The notes: generated by a model from the sequence alone, not told the origin. Shown: positions 14,396-58,721, counted from the stretch's first letter. The stretch: 64,000 bases of DNA from Thermoplasmata archaeon (GCA_003554965.1 PWHR01000046.1:56149-120148); one strand, 5' to 3'. Numbers and translations: made by a program.

Positions 14396-14403
14396 TCCTT
14401 GTC

Positions 14404-15189
14404 TTATCCTTCTCTGTAAAAAGAACCTTCTCCTCCTCTCTCTTCGATCTTCTTTACCGCCTCTTGAGCCTGGTCTTCGAAGATCTCCTCAGCTTTCTTG
14501 TAATCCTCTGACTGTATTTCCACCCTGTATTTTGGTGCAGCTACATAATTAACTTCCACTTTTGAATCCTCTGTATCCTCAAAAGCTGAGAGGGCGTAAT
14601 TGATATCATCGATGCCGTCCGGGTTCGTAGAAGATATCTCCACAAACCCATCGATACTTACGTACGGAGGAGATATATTTTCTTCAGCTACATCAATAAA
14701 ATGATCGATCCAATCCCCTTCAAACCCATCTTTCGCCAATATTTCCGGGTCTAAAGAACACTTTTCGAAGGCTTTATAGAGACTTCCGTACTTATCACTC
14801 AATTCAAAAGCGAATTCTTCATAACACTCTTCCTTGTCTTTACCAAACCTTTCCGCTACGATACTTAGAAGATTATCGGCCTTCTTCTGATTCTTCCAAG
14901 CCTGTAATTTTTCTCTCTTCTGATGTTCATTCACTTGTTTCAAGGAAAGATCGATATGTCCTTTGTGTTTATCAACACGTAAAACCTTACAGACTCTTTT
15001 TTCCCCTTCCTGTATATGATCCTTGATCCTCTTCACCCATCCAGAGGATATTTCAGATATATGGACGAAACCCTCTTTTCCATCGTACTCTTCCAAAGTC
15101 AAAAAAGATCCAAAATCTTTTACAGTCTTTACATTACATATGACGAGTTCGCCTTCGCTAGGCCATTCATACTCTTCCGTTGAGGTCAT
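14404..15189 (-). CDS. eif2a: Translation initiation factor 2 alpha subunit (aIF2-alpha)
   Basis: 261 aa. N-terminal S1 domain (GELVICNVKTVKDFGSFLTLEEYDGKEGFVHISEIS), helical domain and C-terminal alpha/beta domain. Confidence 0.9.
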   Translation of the reverse strand: MTSTEEYEWPSEGELVICNVKTVKDFGSFLTLEEYDGKEGFVHISEISSGWVKRIKDHIQEGEKRVCKVLRVDKHKGHIDLSLKQVNEHQKREKLQAWKNQKKADNLLSIVAERFGKDKEECYEEFAFELSDKYGSLYKAFEKCSLDPEILAKDGFEGDWIDHFIDVAEENISPPYVSIDGFVEISSTNPDGIDDINYALSAFEDTEDSKVEVNYVAAPKYRVEIQSEDYKKAEEIFEDQAQEAVKKIEERGGEGSFYREG

Positions 15190-34536: not shown

Positions 34537-34742
34537 ACTTAATACCTCTACCACTAGCACTGTCTACATTCATCTTTAGAGGATTAATAAATCTCACTAC
34601 GACATGTCGACGATTCGAGGGGAAAAAGGATATAAGAGCTTTTGCTATAGAGATATATCACATGTATTTACACCGAATTATAGTAATTTATTTTCATAAC
34701 GGGAGTAACTTCTTTATAACCCTTAAACCTACTTGTATCTAA

Positions 34743-37700: not shown

Positions 37701-37841
37701 CTTTTCGAAGAAGCACTATTAGCAAAGAAAATAGACGATGGAAAAAAACACGATGAACTTTTGAAGAAAGCTAAATCCTTGTTTGAAGAGCGGGATATGA
37801 AATATTGGATAGAGAAATGTGAAAAAGAAATTGAAAGTTAA
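34743..37841 (+). CDS. STAND-type regulator: N-terminal winged HTH + AAA(AAA_16-like) ATPase + C-terminal TPR array
   Basis: 1032 aa. wHTH in the first ~100 aa. FVGREEEIASL...MIRGKAGIGKTRL (Walker A) and LLIFIDDLQWVD (Walker B). At least 10 TPR-like repeats in the C-terminal 450 aa. Confidence 0.75.
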   Translation: MKLNTGRSRILVHLWAQKKSIGYDEHKEVPFSLCQKGISESVDLSRNRTSEIIRDLVEKGLVEESVRRVVGLKRRRKVYSLTEKGMKRAKEIRDELKDREVKVKTDSSTYEVKLEEIDSYLDSREPFLVALNNLDEKDTLDLTEPEKKKEDVFVGREEEIASLSSGLEKAKNGEASVYMIRGKAGIGKTRLVNEFKNHALSNGFDFIAGKGYYYSSEPYLPFKEAFKKFQDEENVDYPLEFPEGSSKTNKIPSEKELQDKNYSDVIFSETIKNIKKIVKKRPLLIFIDDLQWVDKASLILFHYIADKLNDQKMMLIGSYRPEDVVENDFLREILQRMNREDLYDEISLEPLTWEDTREIIKSLIGKYVIPEDFAKIIHETSEGNPLFSKELVKQMLDDGTLDPKNKVFPSKKNGFELPKVIDEIIERRIKRLNKENLKVLQIGSIIGEDIPFALLHKVSDLESFELLEYTDILTGSGIWDYDAEDDLFHFAHGLIYLSIYQSIPKHIKKILHGEVAEAMEKIFEDDLKSHYHEIGKHYKVSSNYSKAMQYFEKAGENARNLYAYQDAIEIFEKAFDLAEKTNSHEKIGKISLKLGDLYSIIGKYEKSLDYYEMVPLDELETDQEARKFYRKKAKLFDRMGRLKEAIKLTDKGLEIGNEENMETAKLLNRKGWAQMRIGYHSSAKENFLKALKISKNQGEENEFGDMYHALGSIYIHDAEYDEALKYLKKGLEVRDKNDDKEGKASSLANIGNVYLKKGEIYKALDKFNQSLEILREIGKKDQLFKILTNIGNARLKKGELEKAYECYKESQEIIEELDDVRGLNISLTNLGNYHILKGDFDKALEYHKKSLEMSQEKDLKNGIALGHNNLGIIYTHKEDYDNAKSNFFKSIEICEETENYHLLVHPLVGLAHIFNHEKKFEKALEKAERALEISKNIGAKIEEGISNKALGIVHRDIGNFDEAKIRFEKGKEMLSESGESKEMGKLLFEEALLAKKIDDGKKHDELLKKAKSLFEERDMKYWIEKCEKEIES

Positions 37842-43059: not shown

Positions 43060-46000
43060 TTACTCCTCGAAAAAATCAGTCTCTTCAGATTCCCCTACCA
43101 TCTCTTCTTCTACTGGTTCACTTCCGCCTTTCTTCTGCATCACTGCGAAGACCGCTATTATCACCGCTAGTATCGCCAGAACTATACCGACTATTCCCAG
43201 GTTTCTAGCCATGTCGATGTCGTCCTCCTGATCTTCTTCTACGTCTTCCTGGTCTTCCTTGAACTCTTCTAAGTCATTCCTTAACTCATCGATGTCATCT
43301 TCGAGCGCCGTTATATCGTCCTCTATATCAGCTATGTCATCTTCGATCTCTGCTATGTCGGCCTCTATGTCATCTATGTCTACTTCAAGTTCGTCTATTT
43401 GACTTTGTAGATCTTCTTCTACCTCTTCAAGATCATCACTTAGTTCGTCTATCCATCCATCGAGATCATCTATTTGACCTTGGAGATCTTCTTCTAAATA
43501 ATCAAGATCATCTCTCAGATCGCCTATGTCTTCTTCAATAGCATCTATATCTGTCTCAATGGTCTCAATTGAATTCCAAATCTCAGGTATCTCGGGCAAG
43601 TATAGTGCAGACACTGTAGTTTGCCTATGATTTCCTGCTCCATCCTCTGCAATCACTTCGATCACGTTTTGTCCTTCAACAAGCATCAATGTATATGAGA
43701 AATCTCCTTCCTCGTCGACATCGACCATTTCACCGTCAATCCATAGTTCAGCTTCAGGATGTGTCGTTCCTTCGATCATCAGTTCTTCTTCGTAAGTTAG
43801 CTCTTCAATTCCATCTTCTGGAGAGGTGAATTCGATGTCTGGCGGTGTAGTATCTATGGTGAGGTCCACCATCTCTACATGTTCGTTACCTGCATAATCT
43901 GTTGCCCTTACATAGGCGGTATTCTCACCGTCGGGGACACCATTGAACGTATGGGTTTGAGGTTCTACCTCTTCGTCTTCAGTATGGGCAGCAACGACTC
44001 TATCGTCTTCAGCACCGCTGTAAACCACTCCTTCAGAGGCATGGATGTCTCTCACGAAGTGTTCGTGATGCTCGTGAGACCACAACATTTCACCATCTTC
44101 TGCATCGGCGGCTAGCACTCTCTCATCATCTCCACCGCTGAAAACCATACCCTCACATTCAGAAAGGGCATAGATTATAGCGTCTTCGTGATGTGTGTGA
44201 CTCCAGTCTTCTTCACCGTCTTCAACGGATGCCGCTACAACTTCACCGTCATTGCCAGCGCTGTAAACCAGCTCTTCAGAAGCATGGACCGCATATATCG
44301 GACCGACATGATGCTCGTGCTCCCAGATCATATCTCCATCCTCAGCATCAGCCGCGATCACGGTATTTCCTTGGCCTACTGAACCGCTGTAAACGACTCC
44401 ATCGTGAGCATCAACATCGAACACAGCTTCTCCATGGTGGTCGTGTCTCCAGATTTCTTCACCGTCATCTAAATCAGCTGCTATGACATTTCCACCAAGG
44501 CCTCCGCTTACTATCATATCATCGACTACTGTCAAAGAGTAAACTCCCATATCGTGATGGTCATGTGTCCATAATTCTTCGCCTGTATCAGCATCTGCTG
44601 CTATAACCGAACCATCAAAACAACCACTGTAGACGACTCCATCATGTTCCACTATTCCATATACAGCGTTTGTGTGCTCATAATGGCTCCAAAGAACTTC
44701 TCCTGTTGCTGTGTCATAAGCGATCACTTCACCAGGTTCACCTAATCCTATATCTGCACCGCTGTATATCACTCCATCCGACTCGTAAACTGCTTCTACT
44801 TTTCCATCGTGTTCACTATGTTCCCATATCATTTCACCGGCCTGAGCAGGTGGTTCCGGAGCATCATAGTCTATCCATCCAGTGTCTTCTAAACGCACCT
44901 CTATCTTCTCAGCTTCACCTAGTACGTTCCAAGCAACTTCAACACTGTCTTCAGCGATCTCTTCTCCTTCAGCTGGGCTCACTATATCTAACTCAGGAGC
45001 AATAGTATCCACTGTAAACATAGCTTCCTCGGTTCCTTGATTACCTGCTTCGTCTGTCGCCCTTACCTGAACAGAATGTTCACCATCTGGGAGGTCAGTC
45101 AATTCATACCATGTTCTATGACCAACTTGTATCCAGTCATCCTCAATCGGTGACCATACCTCATAGTATTCTATCGAGGTCGTTTCCTCGTAACCTATCC
45201 ATTGCACTGTAACCTCGCCTTCGTCGAAGTATTCTCCATCTTCAGGATTTGCTATTAATATCTCAGGAGGAACGGTATCAACTATGAATGTGACTGAGTC
45301 TATAGCCTCATTACCTGCATTATCAACTGCCTTGACCTCCACTGTATGTTCGCCTTCACCTAATTCTTCAAATTCAAAGCTGGTATCATCTCCAACGTCC
45401 ATCCATTCCTGTTCTTCTAGACACCAGACTTCGAAATGAGATAGTCCTGAGTACTCGTCTTCACCAAACCATTCAACTGTCACATTTGAAGTATCTAACA
45501 CTGCATCCTCCTCAGGATAGGTTATCTCTATCGTTGGAGGTTCTTCATCTTCGATGATCTCAAAAGTTTCACTGGTATCTTCATCATAGTAACTTATTAC
45601 ATCCACGACTTCAGCCCTTATCATAGCCTCATCTGTAGGATGATCAGGAACTTTCCATGTATATTCACCCGTATCCTCAAGACCTTCCGCTATAGTATTC
45701 CAGCTGTCACCACCGTCAACGCTGTATTCAAGGTTTACATAGTCGATGTCTTCATCTCCTTCAATAGTGTTCCAATCAAGGTCCTGTTCTGAATAATGGA
45801 ACCATTCTTCCCCTCCTTCAGGAGTGGTAATTTCTATCTCAGGAGATTCAACATCTGGATCACCAGGTTCATATTTCGAATTCTCGTTGTCCTCTTCCTG
45901 TCCATAATTATCAACAGCTCTTACCAAGTACCAATAGAACGGTTCACCTGCAGCATCCTCGTCGATATACTCGTATTCCGTTACATCTTCGTCTGCCTCT

Positions 46001-49000
46001 ACAGTAGCTATCGGATCATCCCAAGGACCACCTTCATCTTCAGATCTGTATACATTGTATTCGTCTATCCTGTATTCATCGGGGCTCTCTACCCATGTTA
46101 TCTTGTTGTGATCTTCTTCGTGCTCATGTACACGTACTCTTTGTGGAGGCTCTACCATAGGTGGTAAAGGTTCTTGGGCCGCATCTTCGTTCTGCTCTTC
46201 CATCTCATTCAATGCTACCGCTCGGACCACATACCACAAGCGAGTGTCGTTTTGAGCGGGACCCATATCAGGATCTAGGTACCAATAATCTTCTGAGCCA
46301 TCCGCTGGAACAGTATCTATGAGTGCTTCTTCATCCCATGGACCTGTTTCCTCGTCAGCTCTGTATATGTTGTAATGTGTTACTTGTTCAGGAGCGTCCG
46401 CAGGATCATCAGGGCTCGCATCCCACGATAGTACATTGTGATCTAAACCATCCTCGTCCACCTGTTCAACATTGACCTCTAACGCCCAGCTATCATCGAA
46501 TCCTAGTCCTATCAACTCGTCCCAGGTCTCACCGTCCATGCTTATATATCCTGCATCCTCGAGATAACCTTCTACTGTGCCGGTAGGTTGGAATCCATCA
46601 CCGATATCTTCGACCTCTAGAACTACCCAATAATAGCCAGAATCTATACTGACGGGTTCCATGAGAGGTATTTCGTTCCATTCTTGTTCATCGAACTCAG
46701 TCATGGTTTCAGTTTGACCGAGCATCTCACCCGGAGAGTCACCTGTATCTTCATGTATCGTACCTGTGATCGACTCCGCATCATCCCATTGGTAATACGC
46801 TATATCCTCAACTTGTCCTCTAGGCAATTCTATCCTCATCGCAGTCCAGTATTCCCCAGGTCCGGTCAAACCGATAGCATTATCGGCCTCAGGCCTATGG
46901 TCATCATCGTACATCCAGTGCCATTCTTCCTCTAAACTACCGTGTTCTACTTCCAGGTTCTCCGGCTGTTGAGGAGGCTGCCCTACTATCTCGAACTCTT
47001 CGCTCGTGTTTTCATGGAATCTACCATATTCGTCTACAACTCTCGCCTGTATCATAGCTTCATCACTGGGCCAATTCGCTACTTCCCACTCATATTCGCC
47101 GTCATCTTCAAGTATGTTGTCGATCTCGGTCCAAGTTTCTCCTCCATCTGTACTGTAACTCAAATGATCGATGTAATCTATCTCTACTGGTTCATCGTTC
47201 TCTTCGGCTTCTTCTGTTGTCCACATTATGTCCTCCAGATCATAAGCGTCCCAAACTGAGTCAGCATCAGGTTGATCTATGGTGATCTCAGGAGTCTCAA
47301 CATCTGGATCACCGGGCTCCTGCTTCGCTTCTTCGTTCTCCTCTTCTAATTCATTGATCCCAACAGACCTTACCACATACCAGTAGTATGGCTCTTCTGC
47401 AGCATCTAGATCGATGTATTCGTACTTTTCAGAACCGTCAGCTTCTACACTGCCTATAGGTTCGTCCCATGGACCTTCCATATCTTCGGCTCTGTAAACA
47501 TTATAATGACTGACCTCGCCTACATCTTCGCTGGGGCTAGCATACCATCTAAGTTGATTGTTCACGGGTTCATCCCGCTCTATCTCAACTGTCATCTCGA
47601 TGTCATCGATGCGCCAGCCTCCGTCCCATTCGTCCCAGTCATGGGTAGAAGCTATCCAAGCTATATTAACCGTTTCTCCGGCGTATTCATCTAGATCGAC
47701 TGTCACTTCTTCCCAGTCTTCAGATCCCCACCAAGCCGGGAGACCTTCCATTGGATTATCAAAACCTTCATTGAGTTCTCCATCGTAACCGGGTTCTGGA
47801 TCATCGATGAGTCCAAATTCCTCTCCATCGGTAGAGATCAACAAAGTGCCTCCATCCCATTCTGGCTCCATATCTCGCCAGTGCTGGAATGAGAATTCCG
47901 CACTCTCGGCTTCAGTCAAGTCGATCGTCGGAGAGACCAACCAACTATCATCACCGACCTGTTCGTAAGTCTCGTTTCCCCAGTCCCAGGACTGTTCACC
48001 TACTGCAGCACCGTGATCTCTTATATCCCATTCGTTCACTTCATCCATGGTCATGTATCCTTTATCTTCGGAAACGTTGTCTTCAAATATCGTATCGAAC
48101 TCAGTATAATGATCTTCAACTAACAGGCTCTCCGGAGGCTCAGGCGGCACTCCTTCGATAGTAAATTCATCTGAAACAGCTTCTCCGTAACCTCCTTCTT
48201 CGTCTATCACTCTGATACGTATCTGAGCTTCGTCGACTTCAGGTTCTGTAGGATTTATAACGTCCCAGGTGTAGGTACCCTCATCTTCTTCTAATGTAGC
48301 TATGTTATTCCATATCTGACCTCCGTCCGTGGTATACCATAGGACCGCTTTATCTATATCATAATCACCTGGAGTGGAATCCCAAATGATATCCTCTTCT
48401 GTATGACCGACCCACACAGTATCTTCTTCGGGTTCTTCTACCTCTACCGTAGGTGGATCATGTATCATCTCTGCTTCTTCAGCATTGTGAACTGCTAAAG
48501 CATAATCTTGACTTGTCTCTCCTATATTTACTGCATCTGCTACGATGTTCGCCCCGGTCACTCTGACAGAGTAATTTCCAGCAACTAAATCCTCAGGCGG
48601 GATATACACGTTCTGTACATTGTTGGTGTCGTCCCAACCGTCGCCCTTTCTATCGAAAACTTCCATAGTGTCCTCATTCGGCTGAGTCCAACCTTCTTCG
48701 AACGCGTTTCCTTGATAGACTTCTCCTTCCGGTGATACGACCTCTAGATTCAGATCGTTCATCAGAGTAGGATCGTCGAAAGCGTCAGGTGGAGCTGCCT
48801 CATCGGCCCACCCAAGAGTTACCTTCATCGGCTCTTCAGGATCTTCATGTTCCACTGTATATTCGTGATATTCCCCACTGTCGGTCAGTTCTTCTTCCTG
48901 ATCCACTGTGTAGAAGGGGAGTTGATCCTCTTTTGGATATTCGAGCTTGGAGATGTCTACCATACCCCAACCTTCGTCTCTATTAGGGATCGGGCCTTCA

Positions 49001-50931
49001 GTATTGCCTATCTCTTCAGACAATGGTTCTGCGGTATTGATCAAAAGAGACCTTACCATCGCGGGACTCGGTCTATAACCGTGATTCTCTTCATACCATT
49101 CAACTATCACGGAGGCTGCACCGGCCGCTACTGGATTAGAAGATGAAGTACCACCCATCCATCTGTATTCCTCTGGGTTTGGCTCATAAGTTCCTGTGCC
49201 TTGTGGAGTTTGCGTAGAAGTTGTCAACTCAGCAGGAGCAACAACATCAGGTTTAATCCTATTGTCTGCTGTCCATCCTCTAGAACTGTAACCAACGATA
49301 TCTTCTGGATTATCGGAATTCACTCCTCCATAATCTCCTCCATCAGGAGCCCAATTGTAAGTCGCTCCGACAGTGATCACGTTCTTTGCATGACCCGGAC
49401 TTCCGGTGGATTGGTATCCTGGACCTGCGTTACCTGCAGAACTGGTTATAACCATCGGCTCGTTTTCTTCTGTTTCCCTGTTTGCATCTCTCACCGCTGA
49501 ATCGAAAACTGAATCAGTCTCTATATATTCGCCGAATGTATCTGCGCCCCAAGAGTTAGAGTGAATGTAGGTATCGGATTCCTGAGCAGGAACTTCGAGT
49601 ATCTCAAAATAATCTTCGGGACCTACCCAAGTTGCTCCATCATCGCCAAATATCTTGGCACTGTATAGTTCAGATTCATAAGCCAATCCCTGAGAAAGGT
49701 AATAAGGTCCTGTAGTTTCTCCTGCATAGGTCTCTCCTGTTCCACCATAAGTATGTCCAGCAGCTAAGCCTGCCGCGTGTGTTCCATGATAATGGCCGTC
49801 TCCCCAATAATCTGGGTCATCCCAATTATATCCTCCTACTACTCTATCAGTGAAATCCGGATGGCCTGCATCACCTTCCTCACTATCGCCTATTCCAGTG
49901 TCAGCGATCGTTATGGTCACGTCTTCTCCTGAGTAGCCGATCTGATTTATGTATGCTCCGTAATCTCCATGTTTTCTATAGGGCTCTTGTGGATTCCATT
50001 CATCTTCATCATCCATGAACCAGAGACCTCCGCCGGTCAACTGTGATTCCATCTCGTGTAGTTCCGGTTCTTCGTGCTCACTTATATAATAGACTTCATC
50101 GATCATAGCTATTTCATAAAGGTCTTCTTCTTCGTCTATCTCCATCCGTACTCTATGTTCTCCGTCAGGAAGTTCTACGTGGGAAATCACAGGTTTTTCG
50201 ATCTCCTCGTTTCCAACTGCGAGTTCCAACTCATTCTCTCTCCGGTCGGTTTCTACAGCCGCTTTTTCAGTTATCTGGTTTATCGTTTCGAAGTCAGCGT
50301 TTGGCGTAAGTCCAACTTCTATAGCACCAGACTCAAGTCCTGGTTGTATCTTGAACTCCGGTTGATATATGCCGACCCAATCGACGAATTCCAAGTTCTC
50401 GACTCTTTCAGCCTGTTCTGGAGTCATCAGCACTCTGTATCCGTAGTTGTGGACGTAGTTCATCACTTCTACGCTTTTTTCTTCAAGAGTCTCCACCCAA
50501 TCGGAACTTATGGGACCTATCATGTCGACCAGATATATCCCTTCTGTTCCCTGTTCGTAAGATTCAATAGTGTATTCCTCGTTCAATTCAGGGAGACCTT
50601 CATTAGTATCGAACTCGTAACCGTTCACGATCAATTCGTTTCTATGGTTCAAAGTCCTCACTTCATACTGACTTTCTATTGTCTCTAATCCTCTCTCCGA
50701 AGTCTCCAATATAACGTTCCTTCCGTAATGGTCGATGATTTCACCATGTTCACTAAGATAATCTAAATCTCCTGATCCATCAGCGTAAACCAAAATAACT
50801 TCATCCATTTTCTCTAAGTTTTCATCAGATTCGGCACCACCTAGAACCATCATCCCAGGTATCACGGTGCCTACCACTAGTACAAAGGCTATCACTAAAA
50901 CGGATATTCTCTTTCTAATTTTACTATTCAT
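43060..50931 (-). CDS. Giant secreted/membrane-anchored protein with S8 peptidase domain, fn3 repeats and an 8-bladed PQQ-like beta-propeller (paralog family, SPEARE-like)
   Basis: 2623 aa. RBS GAGGT. The N-terminal ~330 aa are homologous to giant protein 1. S8 triad reads IADTGIGD / HGTHAAGLAAG / GTSSSNPVAAGAASVIVEW. Repeated fn3-like modules (YNVYRAED..GPWDEPI) are present. Eight ~40-aa repeats follow the pattern VYSG..DG.V.A.DA..GE..W.H.HH. C-terminal coiled coil + MARNLGIVG + TM + acidic tail ending FFEE. Confidence 0.85.
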   Translation of the reverse strand: MNSKIRKRISVLVIAFVLVVGTVIPGMMVLGGAESDENLEKMDEVILVYADGSGDLDYLSEHGEIIDHYGRNVILETSERGLETIESQYEVRTLNHRNELIVNGYEFDTNEGLPELNEEYTIESYEQGTEGIYLVDMIGPISSDWVETLEEKSVEVMNYVHNYGYRVLMTPEQAERVENLEFVDWVGIYQPEFKIQPGLESGAIEVGLTPNADFETINQITEKAAVETDRRENELELAVGNEEIEKPVISHVELPDGEHRVRMEIDEEEDLYEIAMIDEVYYISEHEEPELHEMESQLTGGGLWFMDDEDEWNPQEPYRKHGDYGAYINQIGYSGEDVTITIADTGIGDSEEGDAGHPDFTDRVVGGYNWDDPDYWGDGHYHGTHAAGLAAGHTYGGTGETYAGETTGPYYLSQGLAYESELYSAKIFGDDGATWVGPEDYFEILEVPAQESDTYIHSNSWGADTFGEYIETDSVFDSAVRDANRETEENEPMVITSSAGNAGPGYQSTGSPGHAKNVITVGATYNWAPDGGDYGGVNSDNPEDIVGYSSRGWTADNRIKPDVVAPAELTTSTQTPQGTGTYEPNPEEYRWMGGTSSSNPVAAGAASVIVEWYEENHGYRPSPAMVRSLLINTAEPLSEEIGNTEGPIPNRDEGWGMVDISKLEYPKEDQLPFYTVDQEEELTDSGEYHEYTVEHEDPEEPMKVTLGWADEAAPPDAFDDPTLMNDLNLEVVSPEGEVYQGNAFEEGWTQPNEDTMEVFDRKGDGWDDTNNVQNVYIPPEDLVAGNYSVRVTGANIVADAVNIGETSQDYALAVHNAEEAEMIHDPPTVEVEEPEEDTVWVGHTEEDIIWDSTPGDYDIDKAVLWYTTDGGQIWNNIATLEEDEGTYTWDVINPTEPEVDEAQIRIRVIDEEGGYGEAVSDEFTIEGVPPEPPESLLVEDHYTEFDTIFEDNVSEDKGYMTMDEVNEWDIRDHGAAVGEQSWDWGNETYEQVGDDSWLVSPTIDLTEAESAEFSFQHWRDMEPEWDGGTLLISTDGEEFGLIDDPEPGYDGELNEGFDNPMEGLPAWWGSEDWEEVTVDLDEYAGETVNIAWIASTHDWDEWDGGWRIDDIEMTVEIERDEPVNNQLRWYASPSEDVGEVSHYNVYRAEDMEGPWDEPIGSVEADGSEKYEYIDLDAAEEPYYWYVVRSVGINELEEENEEAKQEPGDPDVETPEITIDQPDADSVWDAYDLEDIMWTTEEAEENDEPVEIDYIDHLSYSTDGGETWTEIDNILEDDGEYEWEVANWPSDEAMIQARVVDEYGRFHENTSEEFEIVGQPPQQPENLEVEHGSLEEEWHWMYDDDHRPEADNAIGLTGPGEYWTAMRIELPRGQVEDIAYYQWDDAESITGTIHEDTGDSPGEMLGQTETMTEFDEQEWNEIPLMEPVSIDSGYYWVVLEVEDIGDGFQPTGTVEGYLEDAGYISMDGETWDELIGLGFDDSWALEVNVEQVDEDGLDHNVLSWDASPDDPADAPEQVTHYNIYRADEETGPWDEEALIDTVPADGSEDYWYLDPDMGPAQNDTRLWYVVRAVALNEMEEQNEDAAQEPLPPMVEPPQRVRVHEHEEDHNKITWVESPDEYRIDEYNVYRSEDEGGPWDDPIATVEADEDVTEYEYIDEDAAGEPFYWYLVRAVDNYGQEEDNENSKYEPGDPDVESPEIEITTPEGGEEWFHYSEQDLDWNTIEGDEDIDYVNLEYSVDGGDSWNTIAEGLEDTGEYTWKVPDHPTDEAMIRAEVVDVISYYDEDTSETFEIIEDEEPPTIEITYPEEDAVLDTSNVTVEWFGEDEYSGLSHFEVWCLEEQEWMDVGDDTSFEFEELGEGEHTVEVKAVDNAGNEAIDSVTFIVDTVPPEILIANPEDGEYFDEGEVTVQWIGYEETTSIEYYEVWSPIEDDWIQVGHRTWYELTDLPDGEHSVQVRATDEAGNQGTEEAMFTVDTIAPELDIVSPAEGEEIAEDSVEVAWNVLGEAEKIEVRLEDTGWIDYDAPEPPAQAGEMIWEHSEHDGKVEAVYESDGVIYSGADIGLGEPGEVIAYDTATGEVLWSHYEHTNAVYGIVEHDGVVYSGCFDGSVIAADADTGEELWTHDHHDMGVYSLTVVDDMIVSGGLGGNVIAADLDDGEEIWRHDHHGEAVFDVDAHDGVVYSGSVGQGNTVIAADAEDGDMIWEHEHHVGPIYAVHASEELVYSAGNDGEVVAASVEDGEEDWSHTHHEDAIIYALSECEGMVFSGGDDERVLAADAEDGEMLWSHEHHEHFVRDIHASEGVVYSGAEDDRVVAAHTEDEEVEPQTHTFNGVPDGENTAYVRATDYAGNEHVEMVDLTIDTTPPDIEFTSPEDGIEELTYEEELMIEGTTHPEAELWIDGEMVDVDEEGDFSYTLMLVEGQNVIEVIAEDGAGNHRQTTVSALYLPEIPEIWNSIETIETDIDAIEEDIGDLRDDLDYLEEDLQGQIDDLDGWIDELSDDLEEVEEDLQSQIDELEVDIDDIEADIAEIEDDIADIEDDITALEDDIDELRNDLEEFKEDQEDVEEDQEDDIDMARNLGIVGIVLAILAVIIAVFAVMQKKGGSEPVEEEMVGESEETDFFEE

Positions 50932-51089: not shown

Positions 51090-51236
51090 CAAATCCTCTA
51101 ATTCAGATCCTCCAATAATTTTAAAAATCTAGAACTATAGCGACAAAATTCTCTGAAAATGCGATAAATATAATAGCTTCATTATCCTAACGGAGTGATT
51201 TCCATCGGAAAAAATAGATCTAATCTCAAGCCCTTC

Positions 51237-52562
51237 CTATTGTCGATCATCCACCCGGAACTGTGCTCTTCTTAGATAAGGAGTCAACTTTATCCGGGAT
51301 GGGCACACGTACGAACATAGTCCGCAGTCGATACAATCTCGGGGATTCAATCTTTTCAACCACTTCATATCGTCTTTCTTCTCTGACTGCATTATCTGTT
51401 GAGGATAGATATCTACAGGGCACACAAGGTTACAATAGCCGCACCTTATACAGGGCAACTGCTCTCTATAGGGATCATATTCTTCAGGAGTCAATCCTGT
51501 GAGTCCAGAAGTTGCCTTAAGTACTGGATAAGAAGGATCAGGTACCATCGGCCCCATCATTATAGAACCTAAGGCCACTCTATCGAATCTAAGTGGAGAG
51601 ACATCCATGAAATCGAATATATGTTCAACGGATGTGCCCATCCTAGTCCAAAGGTTCTTTCCACCGGTCGCGCTGGTGTAAAAAGTCATCCCTCTAGAAA
51701 CTAAAGAATATCCTTCAAGTACGGCTTCCGCCAATGCGTATGCTGTTGCGACATTGTGAACTACAGTTCCTATACTGGGTGGAAATTCACCGGAAGGGAG
51801 TTCTTTGTCGATTACCTCGTTCACCAGCAACCTTTCGCTTCCGACGGAGTAATTCGGCTTCACCCTTATTATCTTAACACCGTGTTCTCTAAGCAGTCTC
51901 TCGAATTCAGGCGTTTCCCCTTCTTCTGTTCTTGTAGCAAATATTATCTCTTTCACATCTAGGATATGCCCCATCAGTTTTATACCTTTGATCATCATCT
52001 CCGGCTCTTCCATCATCAACCTGACGTCGCAGGCAAGGTTCGGGTCGCTCTCCTTGGCATTTATAAGAAGGTGAGATATACCGTCCTCTGACAGTTTAAC
52101 ATGCGTGGGGAATGCAGCTCCACCGAGGCCGACGATGCCGGCCTCCCTTACCCTTTCTATAAGTTCGTCTCTCGTTGAATCCCTAGGATCCATAGGTGTG
52201 TAAGTCGGCTCTTTCTCATCACTCTCTGTACGGATCACCACTGTTTTCTCTTCTTCATCCGTTACTGGATTTTTCATCCTCTTGATCTCTTTGACCGTAC
52301 CGGTTACAGGACTATGGATAGGTACCAACATCATCCCCTGTTCTTCTTTACCTCCGATCTTTTCTCCGTACTTAACGTAGGAACCTTTTTCCACCAAAAC
52401 TTCAGCTTCCGGACCTAGGTGCTGACTCATATATACTTTCATCTCGTCCTCTGGTGGGACTTCAGTTATCGGATCATCTATAGATTCTTCTTTCATCCTA
52501 GTATCTACTTCAAACCCGCCCTTTTCTTTGAAATTCTTTATCTGGTTTTTTTTAGAGGCCAT
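51237..52562 (-). CDS. RnfC-like protein (RnfC_N + NADH/FMN-binding 51K-like + 2x[4Fe-4S]), paralog 2
   Basis: 441 aa. IVGLGGAAFPTHVKL and LINAKESDPNLACDVRLM. C-terminal CIRCGYCNLVCP and CIDCGLCSYVCP ferredoxin motifs. Confidence 0.7.
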   Translation of the reverse strand: MASKKNQIKNFKEKGGFEVDTRMKEESIDDPITEVPPEDEMKVYMSQHLGPEAEVLVEKGSYVKYGEKIGGKEEQGMMLVPIHSPVTGTVKEIKRMKNPVTDEEEKTVVIRTESDEKEPTYTPMDPRDSTRDELIERVREAGIVGLGGAAFPTHVKLSEDGISHLLINAKESDPNLACDVRLMMEEPEMMIKGIKLMGHILDVKEIIFATRTEEGETPEFERLLREHGVKIIRVKPNYSVGSERLLVNEVIDKELPSGEFPPSIGTVVHNVATAYALAEAVLEGYSLVSRGMTFYTSATGGKNLWTRMGTSVEHIFDFMDVSPLRFDRVALGSIMMGPMVPDPSYPVLKATSGLTGLTPEEYDPYREQLPCIRCGYCNLVCPVDIYPQQIMQSEKKDDMKWLKRLNPRDCIDCGLCSYVCPSRIKLTPYLRRAQFRVDDRQ

Positions 52563-52610
52563 GATTTATACAATCCTTTAGTTGAGTTTCTAGCACGTTC
52601 ATATACACAT

Positions 52611-53963
52611 CTATTCAAATTCAGACTTTGCCTTTCTAAGATGTGGTTTGAAGTTTATACGAGCTGGGCATACGAACGAACATAGTCCGCAGTCCATGCA
52701 GGTATCTGGATTGAGCTTTTTCAACCTCTTCGTTTTGCCTTTCTTTTGAGCTTTCATTATCATCTGCGGGTAAATATCCACAGGACACACGGTGTTACAA
52801 TATCCACACCGTATACACCAAGTCTGATGCTCATAAGGGTGAGGTTCATCTTCGGTGAATCCGGTCACACCTGCATGAGCCTTAAGGAGTGGTGTTGAGG
52901 TGTCGGGAATTGCAGGACCCATCATTATAGAACCTAAAGCCACTCTTTCAAATTTAGAGGGGGATTCCCCGAGATAATCGAATATATGTCCCACGGGAGT
53001 ACCGTTCCTTACCCATAGATTTCTCCCTCTGATATCCTGAGAATAGTAAGTCAAACCTCGAGATACTAACGGTTCTCCTTTCCTTATGGCTCTAGAGATG
53101 GCGTAAGCCGTCAATACGTTATGGACCAAAGCTCCTATATCGGTGGAATGCTTGTTGTGAGGAACTACGTCTCCCAATATCTCGGTGATCAATAATCTTC
53201 CATAACCTATAGAATAGTTCGGTCTAACTCTAGCTATCCTGATATTTCTTTCTCTTTCGATATGTTTTTCGAACTCAGGTAGTTCGCCCTCCTGGGTCCT
53301 TGTGGCAAATACTATATCATCGGCCCCGATTATATACGCCATCAATTTTATCCCATCTATCATCTCCCTCGGTCTTTCGACCATCAATCTGACGTCGCAA
53401 GCCACGTTGGGATCGCTCTCCTTAGCGTTTATTATCAAAGTTGAGACTTCTCCTTTAGCTTCATCGAGTTTTGCATGTGTCGGAAAGACGGCTCCTCCTA
53501 AACCGACGATCCCGGCTTCTCTTATCCTTTGGATCAATTCATCTCTAGACGCTTCTTTTGGATCTAGAGGTTCATAGACCCGCCTTTTTTCTTCATTTTC
53601 GGTCTTTATTATGACCGCGGTTTCCTCATCGCCTGAGATAGGATGTTCGATCTTCTCTATACTTTTTACTGTTCCATCCACAGGGCTGTGAACAGGGACC
53701 ATCAACCATCCTAAATCTTCCCCTCCACCGATCTTTTGACCGTACTTCACCTCGTCACCTTCTTCCACCAATGGTCTACATTCTGGTCCTATATGCTGTC
53801 TCAAAAATACCGTCATCTCGTCAGCAGGAGGGACTTCTTCGAAGGGACTCTCTATCGCTTCCCTCTTCATCCGTAGGTCTAACTCAAAACCTCCATTCTC
53901 TTCGAATTTTCTGTGAGCTTTTTCCTTGTTGAGTGCTTTCCTTTTATCAACCATGCTAAACAC
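52611..53963 (-). CDS. RnfC-like protein, paralog 1
   Basis: 450 aa. IVGLGGAVFPTHAKL and IINAKESDPNVACDVRLM. C-terminal CIRCGYCNTVCP and CMDCGLCSFVCP. Clearly paralogous to the downstream gene. Confidence 0.7.
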   Translation of the reverse strand: MFSMVDKRKALNKEKAHRKFEENGGFELDLRMKREAIESPFEEVPPADEMTVFLRQHIGPECRPLVEEGDEVKYGQKIGGGEDLGWLMVPVHSPVDGTVKSIEKIEHPISGDEETAVIIKTENEEKRRVYEPLDPKEASRDELIQRIREAGIVGLGGAVFPTHAKLDEAKGEVSTLIINAKESDPNVACDVRLMVERPREMIDGIKLMAYIIGADDIVFATRTQEGELPEFEKHIERERNIRIARVRPNYSIGYGRLLITEILGDVVPHNKHSTDIGALVHNVLTAYAISRAIRKGEPLVSRGLTYYSQDIRGRNLWVRNGTPVGHIFDYLGESPSKFERVALGSIMMGPAIPDTSTPLLKAHAGVTGFTEDEPHPYEHQTWCIRCGYCNTVCPVDIYPQMIMKAQKKGKTKRLKKLNPDTCMDCGLCSFVCPARINFKPHLRKAKSEFE

Positions 53964-53965
53964 CC

Positions 53966-55042
53966 CTACTCCTTCACCCCGTGCCCATAGGGTTTCTTGA
54001 CCACGATCATATCTAATACGGGAGTGGCGAAGTTCATTATAACCAGAGCGATTATCGAGCCGCCCAAAAAGCCGTAAAGCTGGAAGACGAACGATAGAAC
54101 TGCGAGACCTATACCAAAAAGGTATTGAGAGAATTCAGGCATCGGAGTGGACTGCGGCTCAGTGGCCATGAAAAACGCCATGAACAGGATGCTGCCGCTG
54201 AATACGTGGAAAGCTATCCTTTGAGTGATCATCTCAGCCGTGGAAACATCACCGCTTTCCCATATGAGCGCCGCTGCTATGGCTAACGCTGTCATCGTAC
54301 CGAGAGTCGCCACCACTATCCTCCATTTGTACCGAAGCCAGTATACCGATATCGCTCCTACGATTATGACCACGATACCCATGCCGCTTCCGATCCAGCC
54401 ATGGGGCTGCCAGAAGAAATGAGCCTGGGTAGCACTTATTTCAGTTCCAAAAAAGGGTATGGTATCTACAAAACTGATTTCAAAAAATTCCATCATGTTT
54501 ACGAATCCTTCACCACTCATCATGCTGTGTTCATAATGGTGGGGATGGAAAATCCCTCCACCCTCTAACGCCCCATCGAATACGTTGAAAAGGCTGACAC
54601 CATAAAGTCCAAGAAGAACGAGGGATTTCGCGGCGGCGGCGGGATTCAAATATTTGTGATCTAAATATCTTCCCTGTATATATTTGAAGACAAACATCGT
54701 CAAGAATGCCACGAAAGCCGTTATGAGAAAAGGAGTTTCGAGAGGCATTGAAAGCCCCACGATCATACCTGCGACCAAGGGCGATGCCGGTGATTCATAA
54801 GTCGGCTTCACGCCTCTCCACTTCTGATAAGAATATATGGTGTTATGAACTATCAGAACAGTACCTATAGCCACGATTATATGTATCAACGCGTCTATCC
54901 CCATGACTACTACCGATGCAAAAGCGATTATAGCCATCAAAAGGAATGTCTTCAACATGAGCTCGTTCTTTTCGAAGCCTATATGGACGTGCGGTGGATT
55001 CACTATTTTATACGGCCTAGCTTTCTTTTCTTTTTTTACCAT
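53966..55042 (-). CDS. RnfD/NqrB-family membrane protein
   Basis: 358 aa polytopic membrane protein. NPAAAAK motif (compare RnfD NPA). C-terminal FFMATEPQSTP...IALVIMNFATPVLD matches the RnfD FMN-threonine region (FMATDPVTSP...AVLLMN..PLID). Strong RBS AAGGAGGT. Confidence 0.65.
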   Translation of the reverse strand: MVKKEKKARPYKIVNPPHVHIGFEKNELMLKTFLLMAIIAFASVVVMGIDALIHIIVAIGTVLIVHNTIYSYQKWRGVKPTYESPASPLVAGMIVGLSMPLETPFLITAFVAFLTMFVFKYIQGRYLDHKYLNPAAAAKSLVLLGLYGVSLFNVFDGALEGGGIFHPHHYEHSMMSGEGFVNMMEFFEISFVDTIPFFGTEISATQAHFFWQPHGWIGSGMGIVVIIVGAISVYWLRYKWRIVVATLGTMTALAIAAALIWESGDVSTAEMITQRIAFHVFSGSILFMAFFMATEPQSTPMPEFSQYLFGIGLAVLSFVFQLYGFLGGSIIALVIMNFATPVLDMIVVKKPYGHGVKE

Positions 55043-55074: not shown

Positions 55075-55437
55075 TTGACCTTGATATTCGTATATCGTCG
55101 TTATAGTATCTTGTTTAAGTATTTTATTTTTACGGAATTTTTCGCTCTTAAGACGAAATTTTTAAATATTATTATAACGTTGTTATTGCTTGTGGTGGAA
55201 GAAGTGGAAGAAAGAAGTGGAAAAAAGATCACTAACTTAGATAATAATGAGGAGATTGTGGAGTGCGTTCATATATGCGGAGAAAGATGTGTTTGTCCAA
55301 TATACAGAAATGAGATAGATGGATACAAGTTCAAATGTGAGTACGGACACTGCAGTGAGGAGATCGTCGGCGATTCAAAAGAAGAAGTGATCTCTAAGGC
55401 CGAAAATCATCTGGTAAAGCACTCTAGTTATTATTGA
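55075..55437 (+). CDS. Small Cys/His-rich protein, DUF1059-like (start uncertain)
   Basis: C-terminal KFKCEYGHCSEEIVGDSKEEVISKAENHLVKH resembles the DUF1059 pattern (C..C...eeEv...A..H...H). A second half-motif VECVHICGERCVC lies upstream. N-terminal hydrophobic stretch. Divergent from the rnfD-like gene. Confidence 0.3.
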   Translation: MTLIFVYRRYSILFKYFIFTEFFALKTKFLNIIITLLLLVVEEVEERSGKKITNLDNNEEIVECVHICGERCVCPIYRNEIDGYKFKCEYGHCSEEIVGDSKEEVISKAENHLVKHSSYY

Positions 55438-55498: not shown

Positions 55499-56446
55499 GT
55501 GAAAGCTCTCGAGATAAAAGATCTAGATAAGCACTTCGATTCATTCAAGGCGGTCAATGGCCTAAACCTCGTTGTCGAAGAAAGTGAGATACACGGCTTT
55601 CTAGGACCAAACGGAGCTGGTAAAACCACCACTTTGAGGATGATAATGGGACTTTTAGAACCGGATGATGGAGACATCCTGATCTACGGGAAAAATAATG
55701 ATAGCAAAGATCTCGATGTTCTTTCTAGAATAGGTTACATGCCGGAAAGGCCTTCTTTTCCAGTTCATCTCACCAGCAGAGAATTGTTGGAGATATACGG
55801 ACAGACATATGGAATACCTGAAGAAGTCAGAGAGGCGAGAGCGAGCCGTCTTTTAAACAAAGTTGGATTAGATAACTATGCTGATAAAAGAACCGGTAAG
55901 TTCAGCAAAGGTATGAAACAGAGGTTGGGCATCGCTCAAGCCCTGATAAGCGAACCGGACCTATTGGTACTAGATGAACCTACTGCTGGTCTCGATCCTG
56001 GAGGAAGGGCCCGGATGAGACAGATAATAAAAGAGATCGGAAAAGATGACATAACGATGCTCATATCATCTCATCTGTTAGAGGAGGTCGAGAAGATTTG
56101 CGAGACGGTAACCATGATAGACGAAGGGAAGAGCGTCCTGTCGGGCTCGGTAGAGGAATTATCACATTCAAAGACCGTTCTTCAGATAGAGTTGATGGAG
56201 ATCACTTCTAGAATCATCAACGCTTTAGAAGATCTGCCCAAAGTCAAAGAAGTGATCCGTGTAGATGATGATAAAGAAGAAATAAAGGTGATCGCCTCTG
56301 ACGATGAGGATTATAGACCGGTAGTTTCTAAAACGATAGTGGATCATGGGGGGACTATTTTAAAGATGACCGATAGATCAAGGAGTTTGGAAGACGTGTA
56401 TCTGGAGGTTATAGACGGAGGACCCGAAGATGAACAGCTCAGATAG
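55499..56446 (+). CDS. ABC transporter ATP-binding protein
   Basis: Walker A GPNGAGKTT, signature FSKGMKQRLGIAQAL, Walker B LLVLDEPTAGLD. Confidence 0.85.
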   Translation: MKALEIKDLDKHFDSFKAVNGLNLVVEESEIHGFLGPNGAGKTTTLRMIMGLLEPDDGDILIYGKNNDSKDLDVLSRIGYMPERPSFPVHLTSRELLEIYGQTYGIPEEVREARASRLLNKVGLDNYADKRTGKFSKGMKQRLGIAQALISEPDLLVLDEPTAGLDPGGRARMRQIIKEIGKDDITMLISSHLLEEVEKICETVTMIDEGKSVLSGSVEELSHSKTVLQIELMEITSRIINALEDLPKVKEVIRVDDDKEEIKVIASDDEDYRPVVSKTIVDHGGTILKMTDRSRSLEDVYLEVIDGGPEDEQLR

Positions 56447-57386
56447 ACGCGATGATGTTTGGGAACAGGTCAAAGCTGTTTTCAGGTACGAACTTCTGCG
56501 AAACCTCAGAAACAAAAACTTCCTGGTGATTTTTTTGATAGCCGTCGGTATATTCTCTTTGAACCTTTTCTTGCCTCCTATCTTAGACGGATTTGAAACA
56601 GACCCAAACTTCTTTTTGGAAAATCTGAACCCCGGCGGTCTGGTCATAATGATCCTCGCTGTAGGAGTGTCCATGAAGACTATCGCCGGAGAGTTTGAAA
56701 GTGGTTCCATGGAACTGCTCGCTTCGAAGCCTATAAGTAGAGATGTCATCTACCTCGGCAAATTAGCAGCTCTGTTCGCTATACTTTTAGTTGTTTATAT
56801 CTTCTTTTTCCTGTATTCTTTGGGAACGAGCACTTGGATATACGGCCTCCAGGATGGACTCTCACTTGTCATGTTGGCGGTTCCCTTCTTTCTAGCGCTC
56901 AGCAGCATGGTATGGGTATCTGTATCTCTTTTTTTGGGAGCCTGGACAAAAAGTTCCGTTGTGACCGTTCTCGGCACCGTCGGAATATTCATAGGTCTCA
57001 GTGTTGCGGCAGGGATAGTACCTTACTATTCGCCAATGACGGGAGAAGCCTTCAATTATCTTCCCGGAGAAGGAGAGAGCGGTGAATTAGCGGTGGGTGA
57101 TGAAGACAGCCCAGTTGAAGGTATAATGATCAACACTGGAACGGACCATCTTTCGGACCTTTTTGTTACCTATTCTCTAGATCCTGAAACGAATATATCT
57201 ATATTGGAACATGAAAGAGGCTGTCCCGTTACAGGTATGGGAGGGGAGGAATTCGTTCCTGGGGATAGAGGCTATACATTGAGTAGTTCCGTAGCTAGGA
57301 CCCTGATGATGACTATGGTTTACATAATCGGATTGAACTATCTAGGGATCCTGTTATTCAAAAAGTCGAGCATCATGAGACATTGA
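56430..57386 (+). CDS. ABC-2 type transporter permease
   Basis: 318 aa with about 6 TM segments. Overlaps the ATPase gene. Confidence 0.6.
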   Translation: MNSSDRRDDVWEQVKAVFRYELLRNLRNKNFLVIFLIAVGIFSLNLFLPPILDGFETDPNFFLENLNPGGLVIMILAVGVSMKTIAGEFESGSMELLASKPISRDVIYLGKLAALFAILLVVYIFFFLYSLGTSTWIYGLQDGLSLVMLAVPFFLALSSMVWVSVSLFLGAWTKSSVVTVLGTVGIFIGLSVAAGIVPYYSPMTGEAFNYLPGEGESGELAVGDEDSPVEGIMINTGTDHLSDLFVTYSLDPETNISILEHERGCPVTGMGGEEFVPGDRGYTLSSSVARTLMMTMVYIIGLNYLGILLFKKSSIMRH

Positions 57387-57482: not shown

Positions 57483-58721
57483 GTGATATTGATGGATGTG
57501 AAAAAGCTGGCCGTTGTTTTGATTAGCCTCGTATTGCTGACTAGTGCTTCTTTGATCGTCATAGAATCAGGAGAAAATGAGCGATTGGTAACAGGGGAAC
57601 CTGATGAAGATCTAGAGATATCTGTGGAATTAACAGTCAATGGAGAAGAAGACGAAGTAACGATAGATGAAGACGATGAAGTGGAGATAGACGTGAGTAT
57701 AGAGAATGACGGTGAGACGGAAGAAACTGTAGAGTTGTACGTACTCGAGGACGATGATCCTATCGCACCTCATGATCCGTATGAAGATTACACCGTAGCC
57801 GCTGGAGAATCAGAAGAAGATACGTTGACCCACGACCACGTTAGCGATTGGGAAGGAGAGTTCTATGCACGTCTTATCCATGAGGATACCGACGAAGTGC
57901 TCGCAGAAGTGGACGTGACCGTCGGCGATCCTGTTGTCGATCCTGATATAACGGCAAATCTAGAAGTCAATGGAGAAGAAGACGAAGTAACGATAGATGA
58001 AGACGATGAAGTGGAGATAGAGGTGAGTATAGTGAATGAAGGTGATACGGAAGAAACTTTTGATTTGTATGTAGTCCGACAAGATACCGAGGAAGTCCAT
58101 GATCCCTACGAGACCTATGATGTAAGTCCAGATGACTATATTGAGGTTACAGAGGATCACGACCACGTTAGCGATTGGGAAGGGGAGTTCTATGCACGTC
58201 TTATCCATGAGGATACCGACGAAGTGCTCGCAGAAGTGGACGTGACCGTCGGCGATCCTGTTGTCGATCCTGATATAACGGCGAATCTAGAAGTCAATGG
58301 AGAAGAAGACGAAGTAACGATAGATGAAGACGATGAAGTAGAGATAGACGTAAGTATAGAGAATAACGGTGAGACGGATGAAACTGTTAAGTTTTACGTA
58401 CTCGAGGACGATGATCCTATTGCACCCCATGATCCGTATGAAACTTACACCGTGCCCGCAGGAGGATCTGAAGAAGATACATTGACTCACGATCACGTTA
58501 GCGATTGGGAAGGAGGGTTCTATGCACGTCTTATCCAGGAAGATACAGAAGATATACTCGCGGAAGTAGACGTGACCGTCGGCGATCCCGATGTAGATCC
58601 TGTTGAAGACGACCCGGATTGGGAGAGTTTGCGGATCTTGATAGGAATTGCTCTAGCCACCTTCATAGTCGGGATAGGCGTCGGATTATTGTACGAGAGG
58701 AAAATAAAGAGAGAGAAATAA
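57483..58721 (+). CDS. Acidic tandem-repeat cell-surface protein (signal peptide, 3 x ~109-aa beta-sandwich/CARDB-like repeats, C-terminal TM anchor + basic tail)
   Basis: N-terminal hydrophobic signal. Three near-identical repeats (ITANLEVNGEEDEVTIDEDDEVEI...DHVSDWEGEFYARLIHEDTDEVLAEVDVTVGDP). C-terminal ILIGIALATFIVGIGVGLLYERKIKREK. Confidence 0.65.
   Translation: MILMDVKKLAVVLISLVLLTSASLIVIESGENERLVTGEPDEDLEISVELTVNGEEDEVTIDEDDEVEIDVSIENDGETEETVELYVLEDDDPIAPHDPYEDYTVAAGESEEDTLTHDHVSDWEGEFYARLIHEDTDEVLAEVDVTVGDPVVDPDITANLEVNGEEDEVTIDEDDEVEIEVSIVNEGDTEETFDLYVVRQDTEEVHDPYETYDVSPDDYIEVTEDHDHVSDWEGEFYARLIHEDTDEVLAEVDVTVGDPVVDPDITANLEVNGEEDEVTIDEDDEVEIDVSIENNGETDETVKFYVLEDDDPIAPHDPYETYTVPAGGSEEDTLTHDHVSDWEGGFYARLIQEDTEDILAEVDVTVGDPDVDPVEDDPDWESLRILIGIALATFIVGIGVGLLYERKIKREK
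57618..58600 (+). repeat. Three tandem ~327-330 nt coding repeats, copies 2 and 3 nearly identical at the DNA level
   Basis: The landmark tcaatggagaagaagacgaagtaacgatagatgaagacgatgaagt recurs at 57637, 57967 and 58294. Confidence 0.85.

Follow-up and report, generated by a model that had tools for sequence, protein, structure and literature searches.

The window analysed here is a stretch of 64,000 nucleotides (nt) of a genome labelled Thermoplasmata archaeon (GCA_003554965.1, PWHR01000046.1:56149-120148), and the subject of this work is a group of three consecutive minus-strand open reading frames (ORFs) at positions 51,237 to 55,042, an RnfD-like gene (D) followed by two RnfC-like genes (C1 and C2). 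Rnf and Nqr are regarded as machines that need all six of their subunits. Our analysis indicates that D and an RnfC-like protein probably constitute a stand-alone module that is not part of a six-subunit Rnf complex. The features of the locus are the following:

53966 to 55042, minus strand: RnfD-like gene D, 358 amino acids (aa), with 0 Cys and 13 His
52611 to 53963, minus strand: RnfC-like gene C1, 450 aa counted from a GTG start (447 aa in the JGI version)
51237 to 52562, minus strand: RnfC-like gene C2, 441 aa
55049 to 55056, minus strand: Shine-Dalgarno-like sequence AAGGAGGT, lying 6 nt ahead of the start codon of D, as read from the sequence
51209 to 51214, minus strand: T6 run, candidate archaeal oligo-T terminator about 22 nt past the C2 stop codon, as read from the sequence

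The start of C1 lies 2 nt past the stop codon of D, and a spacer of 48 nt separates C1 from C2. Since the ORFs are consecutive in the order D, C1, C2, with AAGGAGGT before D and the T6 run after C2, the three genes look like a single operon, which, as we infer, the T6 run would close; the gene after this run begins 305 nt further on. An AT-rich stretch further upstream of AAGGAGGT is a putative archaeal promoter region, common to the divergent ABC-transporter genes.

Both C1 and C2 carry RnfC_N and Complex1_51K domains, a GxGGAxFPTHxK site and two CxxCxxCxxxCP motifs, as found by Pfam and motif searches. The NuoF-type flavin mononucleotide (FMN)/NADH site reads GLGGAVFPTHAK at residue 154 of C1 and GLGGAAFPTHVK at residue 145 of C2, and the [4Fe-4S] motifs stand at residues 383 and 422 and at residues 371 and 410, respectively. 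On the rnfC model TIGR01945 the two proteins scored 365.4 (C1) and 370.2 bits (C2), both above the cutoff of 245.95, and on the nqrA models they scored 29-66 bits against cutoffs of 321-505. Over about 410 residues they align with structurally solved RnfC proteins at E-values from 6e-65 to 2e-53 (7zc6_C at 6e-65), and they are 57% identical to each other (BLASTP). Pfam, motifs and TIGR01945 therefore agree with the initial annotation, made from the sequence alone, which had described two paralogous RnfC-like proteins, each with RnfC_N, a GGAxFPTHxKL-type site and two [4Fe-4S] motifs. The same annotation had kept open that the C proteins are PduS-type. On that reading they would be PduS- or PrdC-type proteins serving a cobalamin or Stickland reductase system, and the adjacency of D would be incidental. 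The PrdC model TIGR04481 does return a secondary match for them, with 154.8 and 138.8 bits, but these scores are far under its cutoff of 490 while the rnfC cutoff was passed. Moreover, RnfC_N is present in both proteins, the alignment with solved RnfC runs end to end, the adjacency of D and C is kept across phyla (see below), and domain scans of the ORFs found no pdu, prd or grd genes in the 64-kb window. The PduS/PrdC reading is effectively refuted.

The D protein matches PF03116 (NQR2_RnfD_RnfE) over its full length, with 123.5 bits and an E-value of 1.5e-35, and this is its sole Pfam domain; together with the NPA motif at residues 133-135, the match bears out its description as a polytopic RnfD/NqrB-like protein. 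Its scores are below the cutoffs of the more specific models, with 74.6 bits on TIGR01946 rnfD (cutoff 207.05) and 20.6-44.9 bits on the nqrB models (cutoffs 350-792). An AlphaFold2 model built on 25 family members reached a predicted local distance difference test (pLDDT) value of 81 and a predicted template modelling (pTM) score of 0.83. Its best folds in the PDB are the RnfD chains 9eri_D, 8ahx_D and 7zc6_D, followed by NqrB, at template modelling (TM) scores of 0.6-0.76 and 17-20% identity; the solved RnfD proteins matched come from Acetobacterium woodii, Azotobacter vinelandii and Clostridium tetanomorphum. A profile search of 1.84 billion representative proteins returned 20 clusters at E<=1e-30, and about 1100 canonical RnfD/NqrB proteins at 90-117 bits. 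D is thus a member of a small, divergent and distinct RnfD/NqrB subfamily, with about 19% identity to solved RnfD. The features conserved in this family are an N-terminal PPHxHxGF, NPA 133-135, FHPHH 165-169, [S/T]-x-E-G-F 176-180, WQxHGWIG 211-218, KWRI 239-242, RxAFH 275-279 and FFMATEPQSTP 290-300, and in alignments the SPHI segment of solved RnfD stands opposite the N-terminal PPHxH of D.

In the cryo-electron microscopy (cryo-EM) structure of A. woodii RnfD, riboflavin is held by N123 and D249 in a cytoplasm-facing pocket, FMN is covalently bound to T156 in a periplasm-facing pocket, and the N- and C-terminal loops dock RnfC (PMC11889175). By pairwise alignment and family conservation, A. 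woodii N123 corresponds to N133 of the window protein, the Asn of NPA, which is present in 108/108 sequences, and D249 (in FFMATD) corresponds to E295 (in FFMATE), a position with Glu in 99/108 and Asp in 9/108. The riboflavin-pocket ligands N133 and E295 therefore appear to be kept in the D subfamily. Likewise, F338, F342 and D346 of NqrB align with the conserved F287, F291 and E295 of D. The initial annotation had taken the FMATEPQSTP...LVIMN block for the FMN-threonine region of RnfD. Because D249 aligns with E295 in FFMATE, the block has to be reassigned to the riboflavin-pocket motif (FFMATD249 of A. woodii), and FMATEPQSTP was discarded as an FMN-Thr site.

The canonical covalent-FMN motif, Dxx(s/t)gA(T/S), lies on the outer side (T156 in A. 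woodii, T187 in Escherichia coli), and three aligners disagree on the position in D that corresponds to its Thr. MAFFT placed T187 of E. coli RsxD opposite T205 of the window protein (in EISAT), the HMMER profile placed the DGMTGAT of A. vinelandii opposite the family sequence LxTAEGF, i.e., at E178 of the window protein, and with HH-suite against 44 canonical RnfD proteins the FMN-Thr fell in a gap beside M184. Ser or Thr is unconserved in all three columns across the 99 core members, with 42 Ala and 23 Thr at position 205, 63 Glu at position 178 and 62 Met at position 184. Searched strictly as D..[ST].A[ST], the motif was absent from the outer loop in 100 core members, the lone match being at residue 78 of P0085, and it was found in 66/122 canonical-range representatives. 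The FMN-binding Thr, whose presence in D the initial annotation had assumed, is thus not a conserved feature of the subfamily. Two candidates were rejected: T205 as a conserved flavinylation site, for which MAFFT speaks, but its column is mostly Ala and both HMMER and HH-suite place the Thr elsewhere; and a loose-motif match, SPASPL near residue 84, seen in 38/40 matching core members and dismissed as homologous to the non-flavinylated DxSAxxTG of canonical RnfD.

The outer loop of the family has a set of invariant or near-invariant residues that are absent from canonical RnfD (H166, H168, H169, G179, W211, H214 and W216), and H169, H214, W216 and G218 are invariant in 99 sequences. The D subfamily thus has, instead of a conserved covalent-FMN threonine motif, a His/Trp-rich outer loop, whose strong conservation suggests that it is functional. 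Loss of the flavin that faces RnfG would fit with the absence of RnfG.

The D-C pair is conserved well beyond this window. A database search returned 112 D homologues, 40-89% identical, from Thermoplasmata, Thor- and Promethearchaeia, Natronoplasma, Bipolaricaulaceae and Bacillota. Taking one genome per GTDB species, we surveyed 48 loci plus the window, called the ORFs and clustered 541 products. Only two clusters were widespread: D, present in 47 loci, and an RnfC-like protein of about 440 aa, present in 45. The remaining neighbours occurred in 5 loci at most. Four candidates for further conserved partner genes (Usp, an FAD-dependent oxidoreductase, a radical-SAM protein, Alba) were rejected, since their recurrence is confined to sub-clades. 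D is tightly, translationally coupled to one C in 45/47 D-bearing loci, which belong to Thermoplasmatota, Asgard archaea, Atribacterota, Acetothermia/Bipolaricaulota and Thermotogae; in most loci C follows D directly, with a gap of -8 to +17 nt, and in the surveyed loci the pair never stands beside other rnf genes. Precomputed Pfam calls showed an isolated D-C pair also in a more distant clade and, within +/-10 kb, on a Thorarchaeota contig of 360 kb.

The D-C-C arrangement was found only in the window and in two Thermoplasmata metagenome-assembled genomes (MAGs; loci L004 and L005). Neighbour-joining placed C1 together with the first C of loci L003-L006; C2 joined the second C from L004 and L005, along with the C that stands singly next to other D paralogues in L008 and L009. 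This placement in separate groups argues for an old duplication, so that C1 and C2 would be old paralogues, which adds a phylogeny to the paralogy that the initial annotation had noted. The conserved unit is accordingly D plus one C, the second C being seen only in this clade. In some hosts the D-C family is multi-copy, since the Thermoplasmata MAG B1Sed10_20 has three separate D-C modules (L003, L006 and L009), with D proteins 78%, 60% and 59% identical to that of the window.

The other Rnf and Nqr subunits were sought in the window and around the related loci. A tblastn search with E. coli RsxA, RsxB, RsxG and RsxE against the 64-kb window returned nothing beyond noise at the ferredoxin motifs of C1 and C2. 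Pfam scans of practically all its long ORFs found no Rnf/Nqr subunit besides D, C1 and C2, with no NqrC-F, ApbE, FMN_bind or PF00175 among them. The earlier observation that nothing resembling RnfG, RnfE, RnfA or RnfB adjoins the operon thus extends to the whole window. Nor were RnfA, RnfB, RnfE or RnfG found within +/-8-10 kb in 47 related loci.

The D domain was found also outside D-C pairs, as part of larger proteins. In loci L039-L045, from Halanaerobiaceae and Clostridia MAGs, a D domain with 39-42% identity forms the N-terminus of proteins of 1120-1240 aa, in which it is followed by a 2x[4Fe-4S] domain and then by an FdhA-like molybdopterin oxidoreductase. Several of these loci have, after the fusion gene, NuoE-like, NuoF-like and NuoG-N-terminal-like genes (e.g., L041, positions 8001-14566). 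Such an arrangement would be a membrane-anchored, NAD-linked, formate-dehydrogenase-like complex, and we found no description of a D-Fer4-FdhA-like complex of the L041 type. Other relatives are D+2x[4Fe-4S] and D+Fer4+FrhB proteins, and some D-Fer4 genes stand alone. The C-terminal fusions to varied iron-sulfur (FeS) and dehydrogenase modules suggest that the D domain behaves as a reusable membrane module, which, irrespective of the input enzyme, would be fed at the C-terminal (cytoplasmic) end by a cytoplasmic FeS chain; they would be hard to reconcile with a role of D only inside canonical Rnf.

These results bear on the possibility of an ordinary split Rnf, in which D, C1 and C2 assemble with RnfA, RnfB, RnfE and RnfG encoded elsewhere and function as a ferredoxin:NAD+ oxidoreductase. 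Members of the D family are annotated at NCBI and JGI as 'RnfABCDGE type electron transport complex subunit D', and the part of the genome examined is 64 kb, both of which would leave room for such an enzyme. We regard it nevertheless as very unlikely, given that A, B, E and G are missing both from these 64 kb and from the surroundings of 47 other loci, that D falls to 74.6 bits against the 207-bit cutoff of TIGR01946, that the RnfG-facing FMN-Thr motif is unconserved, that one related genome has three separate D-C modules and that D domains are fused to non-Rnf input modules. The initial annotation had proposed a stand-alone D+C+C module acting as an NAD(H)-linked membrane oxidoreductase: the stand-alone RnfD and RnfC part of this proposal is supported by the coupling in 45/47 loci, the distinct D and the fusions, and the D+C+C composition gives way to a D+C unit.

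We propose that the D-C complex would be a membrane oxidoreductase that works on its own and stems from the RnfC-RnfD arm of Rnf. A precedent for a one-way, NqrB/RnfD-based conduit from NAD(P)H to the outside is given by the 'NQR/RNF-like' systems (PMC8238504). Each RnfC-like subunit would oxidise (or form) NAD(P)H at a non-covalent FMN, and its two [4Fe-4S] clusters would carry the electrons to the cytoplasmic face of D, where the riboflavin pocket (N133, and E295 in FFMATE) would take them up. Between the riboflavin and the outer face, the covalent-FMN site would be replaced by the family-invariant His/Trp loop (FHPHH, WQxHGW) with a putative cofactor, and this outer site would pass the electrons on to a putative extracellular or membrane acceptor; the path may also run in reverse. 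The complex would use no ferredoxin, RnfB, RnfA/E or RnfG, and C1 and C2 would be alternative input subunits, probably docking alternatively on a single D. Gene content, domains and motifs, the fold, the conserved D-C pair, the lost flavinylation motif and the fusions are observations; which cofactors are bound, which way the electrons flow, how they travel on and what accepts them are what we infer. For the full path from NAD(P)H through C and D to an outer acceptor we see roughly even odds.

Several points weigh against this proposal. In none of the loci is the module accompanied by a linked gene for an acceptor, an outer-face partner, ApbE or FMN_bind, and the search for rnfA, rnfB, rnfE and rnfG covered the window as the examined portion of the genome. 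The pLDDT of the D model is only 51-59 around residues 151-170, and a clustering of the outer-loop His residues would be putative. The window protein itself has T205, which MAFFT sets opposite the flavinylated Thr of E. coli RsxD, so that covalent FMN at T205 in the window's own clade would be a clade-specific possibility. Finally, all members of the D-C family that were found come from MAGs or metagenomes.

The electrons could also end at the riboflavin of D. In this case the complex would be an NADH:quinone oxidoreductase (or would use another lipophilic carrier), the riboflavin would be terminal and reduce a membrane quinone, as in Na+-NQR, and no electrons would cross the membrane. The retention of the riboflavin ligands together with the loss of the outer covalent-FMN motif is in line with this, as is the location of quinone binding in Nqr, which occurs in NqrB, the RnfD equivalent (PMC11889175), with F338, F342 and D346 of NqrB matched by the conserved F287, F291 and E295. 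However, few parts of D are as strongly conserved as the outer loop (H169, H214, W216, G218), which would be unexpected for a vestigial site. Furthermore, many of the host lineages (Halanaerobiaceae, Atribacterota, Acetothermia, Thermotogae and the Loki/Thor archaea) are, to our knowledge, fermentative anaerobes generally regarded as lacking respiratory quinones. We therefore give a quinone reductase a fairly low probability.

A further alternative is a redox-regulated channel or transporter, in which D conducts an ion or small solute and the RnfC-like subunits either gate this passage by sensing NAD(P)H or power the movement of ions, with no net electron output. The fold of the D model weakly resembles those of urea transporters and of AmtB (TM scores 0.32-0.41), consistent with a distant relation of the D fold to urea/Amt channels, and the NPA motif, the conservation in D of the residues of the proposed NqrB Na+ constriction and the fact that MAGs from soda-lake and hypersaline sediments supplied many of the nearest family members could all be read in this sense. 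On the other hand, cryo-EM and molecular dynamics of the A. woodii Rnf gave no evidence of ion translocation via RnfD (PMC11889175), and the full retention of FMN and two FeS cluster sites in C, with D fused to catalytic dehydrogenases elsewhere, speaks for real electron flux rather than sensing. A channel is, in our judgement, unlikely. As for ion pumping by the proposed oxidoreductase, RnfA/E constitute the proposed Na+ site of Rnf (PMC11889175), and since they are missing, the D-C complex is probably not an Rnf-type Na+ pump; there would be a small possibility of ion movement according to the NqrB-channel model.

Going further, the D-C pair might define a class, unrecognised until now, of self-sufficient, NAD(P)H-driven transmembrane electron conduits, in which a His-ligated outer cofactor (metal, haem or non-covalent flavin) replaces the covalent FMN and which fermentative Asgard archaea, Thermoplasmatota and candidate-phylum anaerobes would use to dump reducing equivalents outside the cell or to take them up; such a pair may even be the ancestral core of Rnf and Nqr. 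This extension is speculative and we hold it to be rather improbable.

When compared with the RnfC-RnfD arm of Rnf (9eri, 8ahx, 7zc6), the module is alike in the architecture and cofactor motifs of RnfC, the RnfD/NqrB fold, the NPA Asn and FFMAT(D/E) ligands of the riboflavin pocket, the N-terminal PH-containing segment of D and the adjoining D and C genes. In contrast to Rnf, which has all six of A, B, C, D, E and G, normally in one operon, it has no linked RnfA, RnfB, RnfE or RnfG. Its D is only about 19% identical to solved RnfD and under the TIGR01946 cutoff, without a conserved covalent-FMN threonine motif and with a new invariant His/Trp outer loop, and the gene order is D-C(-C), with two C paralogues here. 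With the NqrA-NqrB pair of Na+-NQR it shares a homologous cytoplasmic subunit docked on a riboflavin-carrying membrane subunit of the NqrB/RnfD fold; however, NqrA is cofactor-free, whereas C1 and C2 keep an FMN site and two [4Fe-4S] clusters, the NqrB equivalog models give D only 35-45 bits (cutoffs 350-414), NqrC-F genes are missing from the window, and the FMN site of the NqrB T236 type is unconserved in D.

The 'NQR/RNF-like' system (Meheust et al., 2021; PMC8238504) has an NqrB/RnfD domain fused to an NqrF-type PF00175 domain, is encoded in ApbE/FMN-binding clusters and was proposed to export electrons one way. It is likewise stripped-down, with an NqrB/RnfD membrane domain and one cytoplasmic NAD(P)H-binding module. 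The D-C module differs from it in that its input is a separate RnfC-like FeS flavoprotein, that ApbE or FMN_bind is not linked and that the flavinylation motif is missing. The fusion relatives described above (D+Fer4+FdhA-like in L039-L045, D+2x[4Fe-4S] and D+Fer4+FrhB) share the D subfamily at 39-42%, a C-terminal FeS domain and an NAD(H)-linked input, but their input module is a different one and is covalently fused.

In the literature we found no description of RnfCD-only modules in archaea, and a comparative paper on Nanohaloarchaeota leaves Rnf unmentioned; the D+C family is apparently undescribed. The role of RnfD/NqrB is disputed between electron wiring only (PMC11889175) and Na+ movement, as in the NqrB-channel model (PMC12174285), and a natural complex of D and C only would be a minimal system to test this subunit alone. 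The D-C pair is conserved across archaea and bacteria, and D is reused with other input modules. For Asgard and Thermoplasmatota archaea, whose bioenergetic inventories are sparse, the module would be a new membrane enzyme that oxidises NADH. It would also correct a systematic misannotation, D-C genes being now read as evidence of an Rnf complex.

By its genes for aIF2-alpha, PriL and Nre the window is archaeal. Among named proteins, those closest to PriL are from Thermoplasmatota, Natronoplasma and Methanomassiliicoccales, and the nearest D-C-C loci belong to MAGs named 'Thermoplasmata archaeon'; on these two grounds the host is placed in the Thermoplasmatota. An identical D gene is present on a soda-lake sediment metagenome contig, and the host is thus a halo(alkali)philic archaeon of this phylum. 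A Nanohaloarchaeota/DPANN origin, which the acidic proteome and the giant ORFs had suggested, was ruled out by the PriL homologues and the nearest D-C-C loci. For the same reasons the premise of a metabolically reduced lineage, made by the initial annotation, does not hold, Thermoplasmatota not being a reduced lineage of the DPANN type.

The genes around the operon include three giant acidic ORFs, all on the minus strand, at 23779-34560 (3593 aa), 37948-42807 (1619 aa) and 43060-50931 (2623 aa), the last of which lies directly downstream of the D-C-C operon. Each of them has an N-terminal signal or transmembrane-like segment, a Peptidase_S8 subtilase domain, Ig-like/PKD/beta-propeller domains, a C-terminal coiled coil and a transmembrane anchor. 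An extracellular FMN_bind domain hidden in these surface proteins was considered and rejected, because they proved to be S8 subtilases with Ig-like, beta-propeller and coiled-coil regions, and domain scans of the three ORFs found no FMN_bind or other redox domain.

On the operon's opposite side, a small Cys-rich ORF at 55075-55437 on the plus strand (…CVHICGERCVCP…KFKCEYGHC…; 77-81 aa in the JGI and Logan versions) is divergent from the D gene. It had no Pfam match at E<=0.001 and is possibly a small metal-binding protein. It is followed by a pair of genes at 55499-57386 (plus strand), an ABC ATPase and an ABC-2 permease, transcribed divergently from the D-C-C operon. ABC ATPases (neighbour cluster c2) are found near D in four further loci (L014, L026, L038 and L046), which may be chance. 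Further on, at 57483-58721 (plus strand), there is a very acidic protein of 412 aa made up of three near-identical repeats of about 115 aa and a C-terminal transmembrane helix. Its homologues (cluster c8) adjoin the D-like gene in L003 and L008 too, which points to a synteny local to this Thermoplasmata clade.

Two more genes of the window deserve mention. Between two of the giant subtilase genes, at 34743-37841 (plus strand), a STAND/MalT-type protein of 1032 aa is encoded, with a PadR-like winged helix-turn-helix domain at the N-terminus, an AAA_16 ATPase domain and numerous TPR repeats. At 13742-14395 (plus strand) there is a gene for a QueH-type epoxyqueuosine reductase (PF02677, E 1e-52), unexpected in an archaeal genome since queuosine is regarded as a modification of tRNA in bacteria and eukaryotes.

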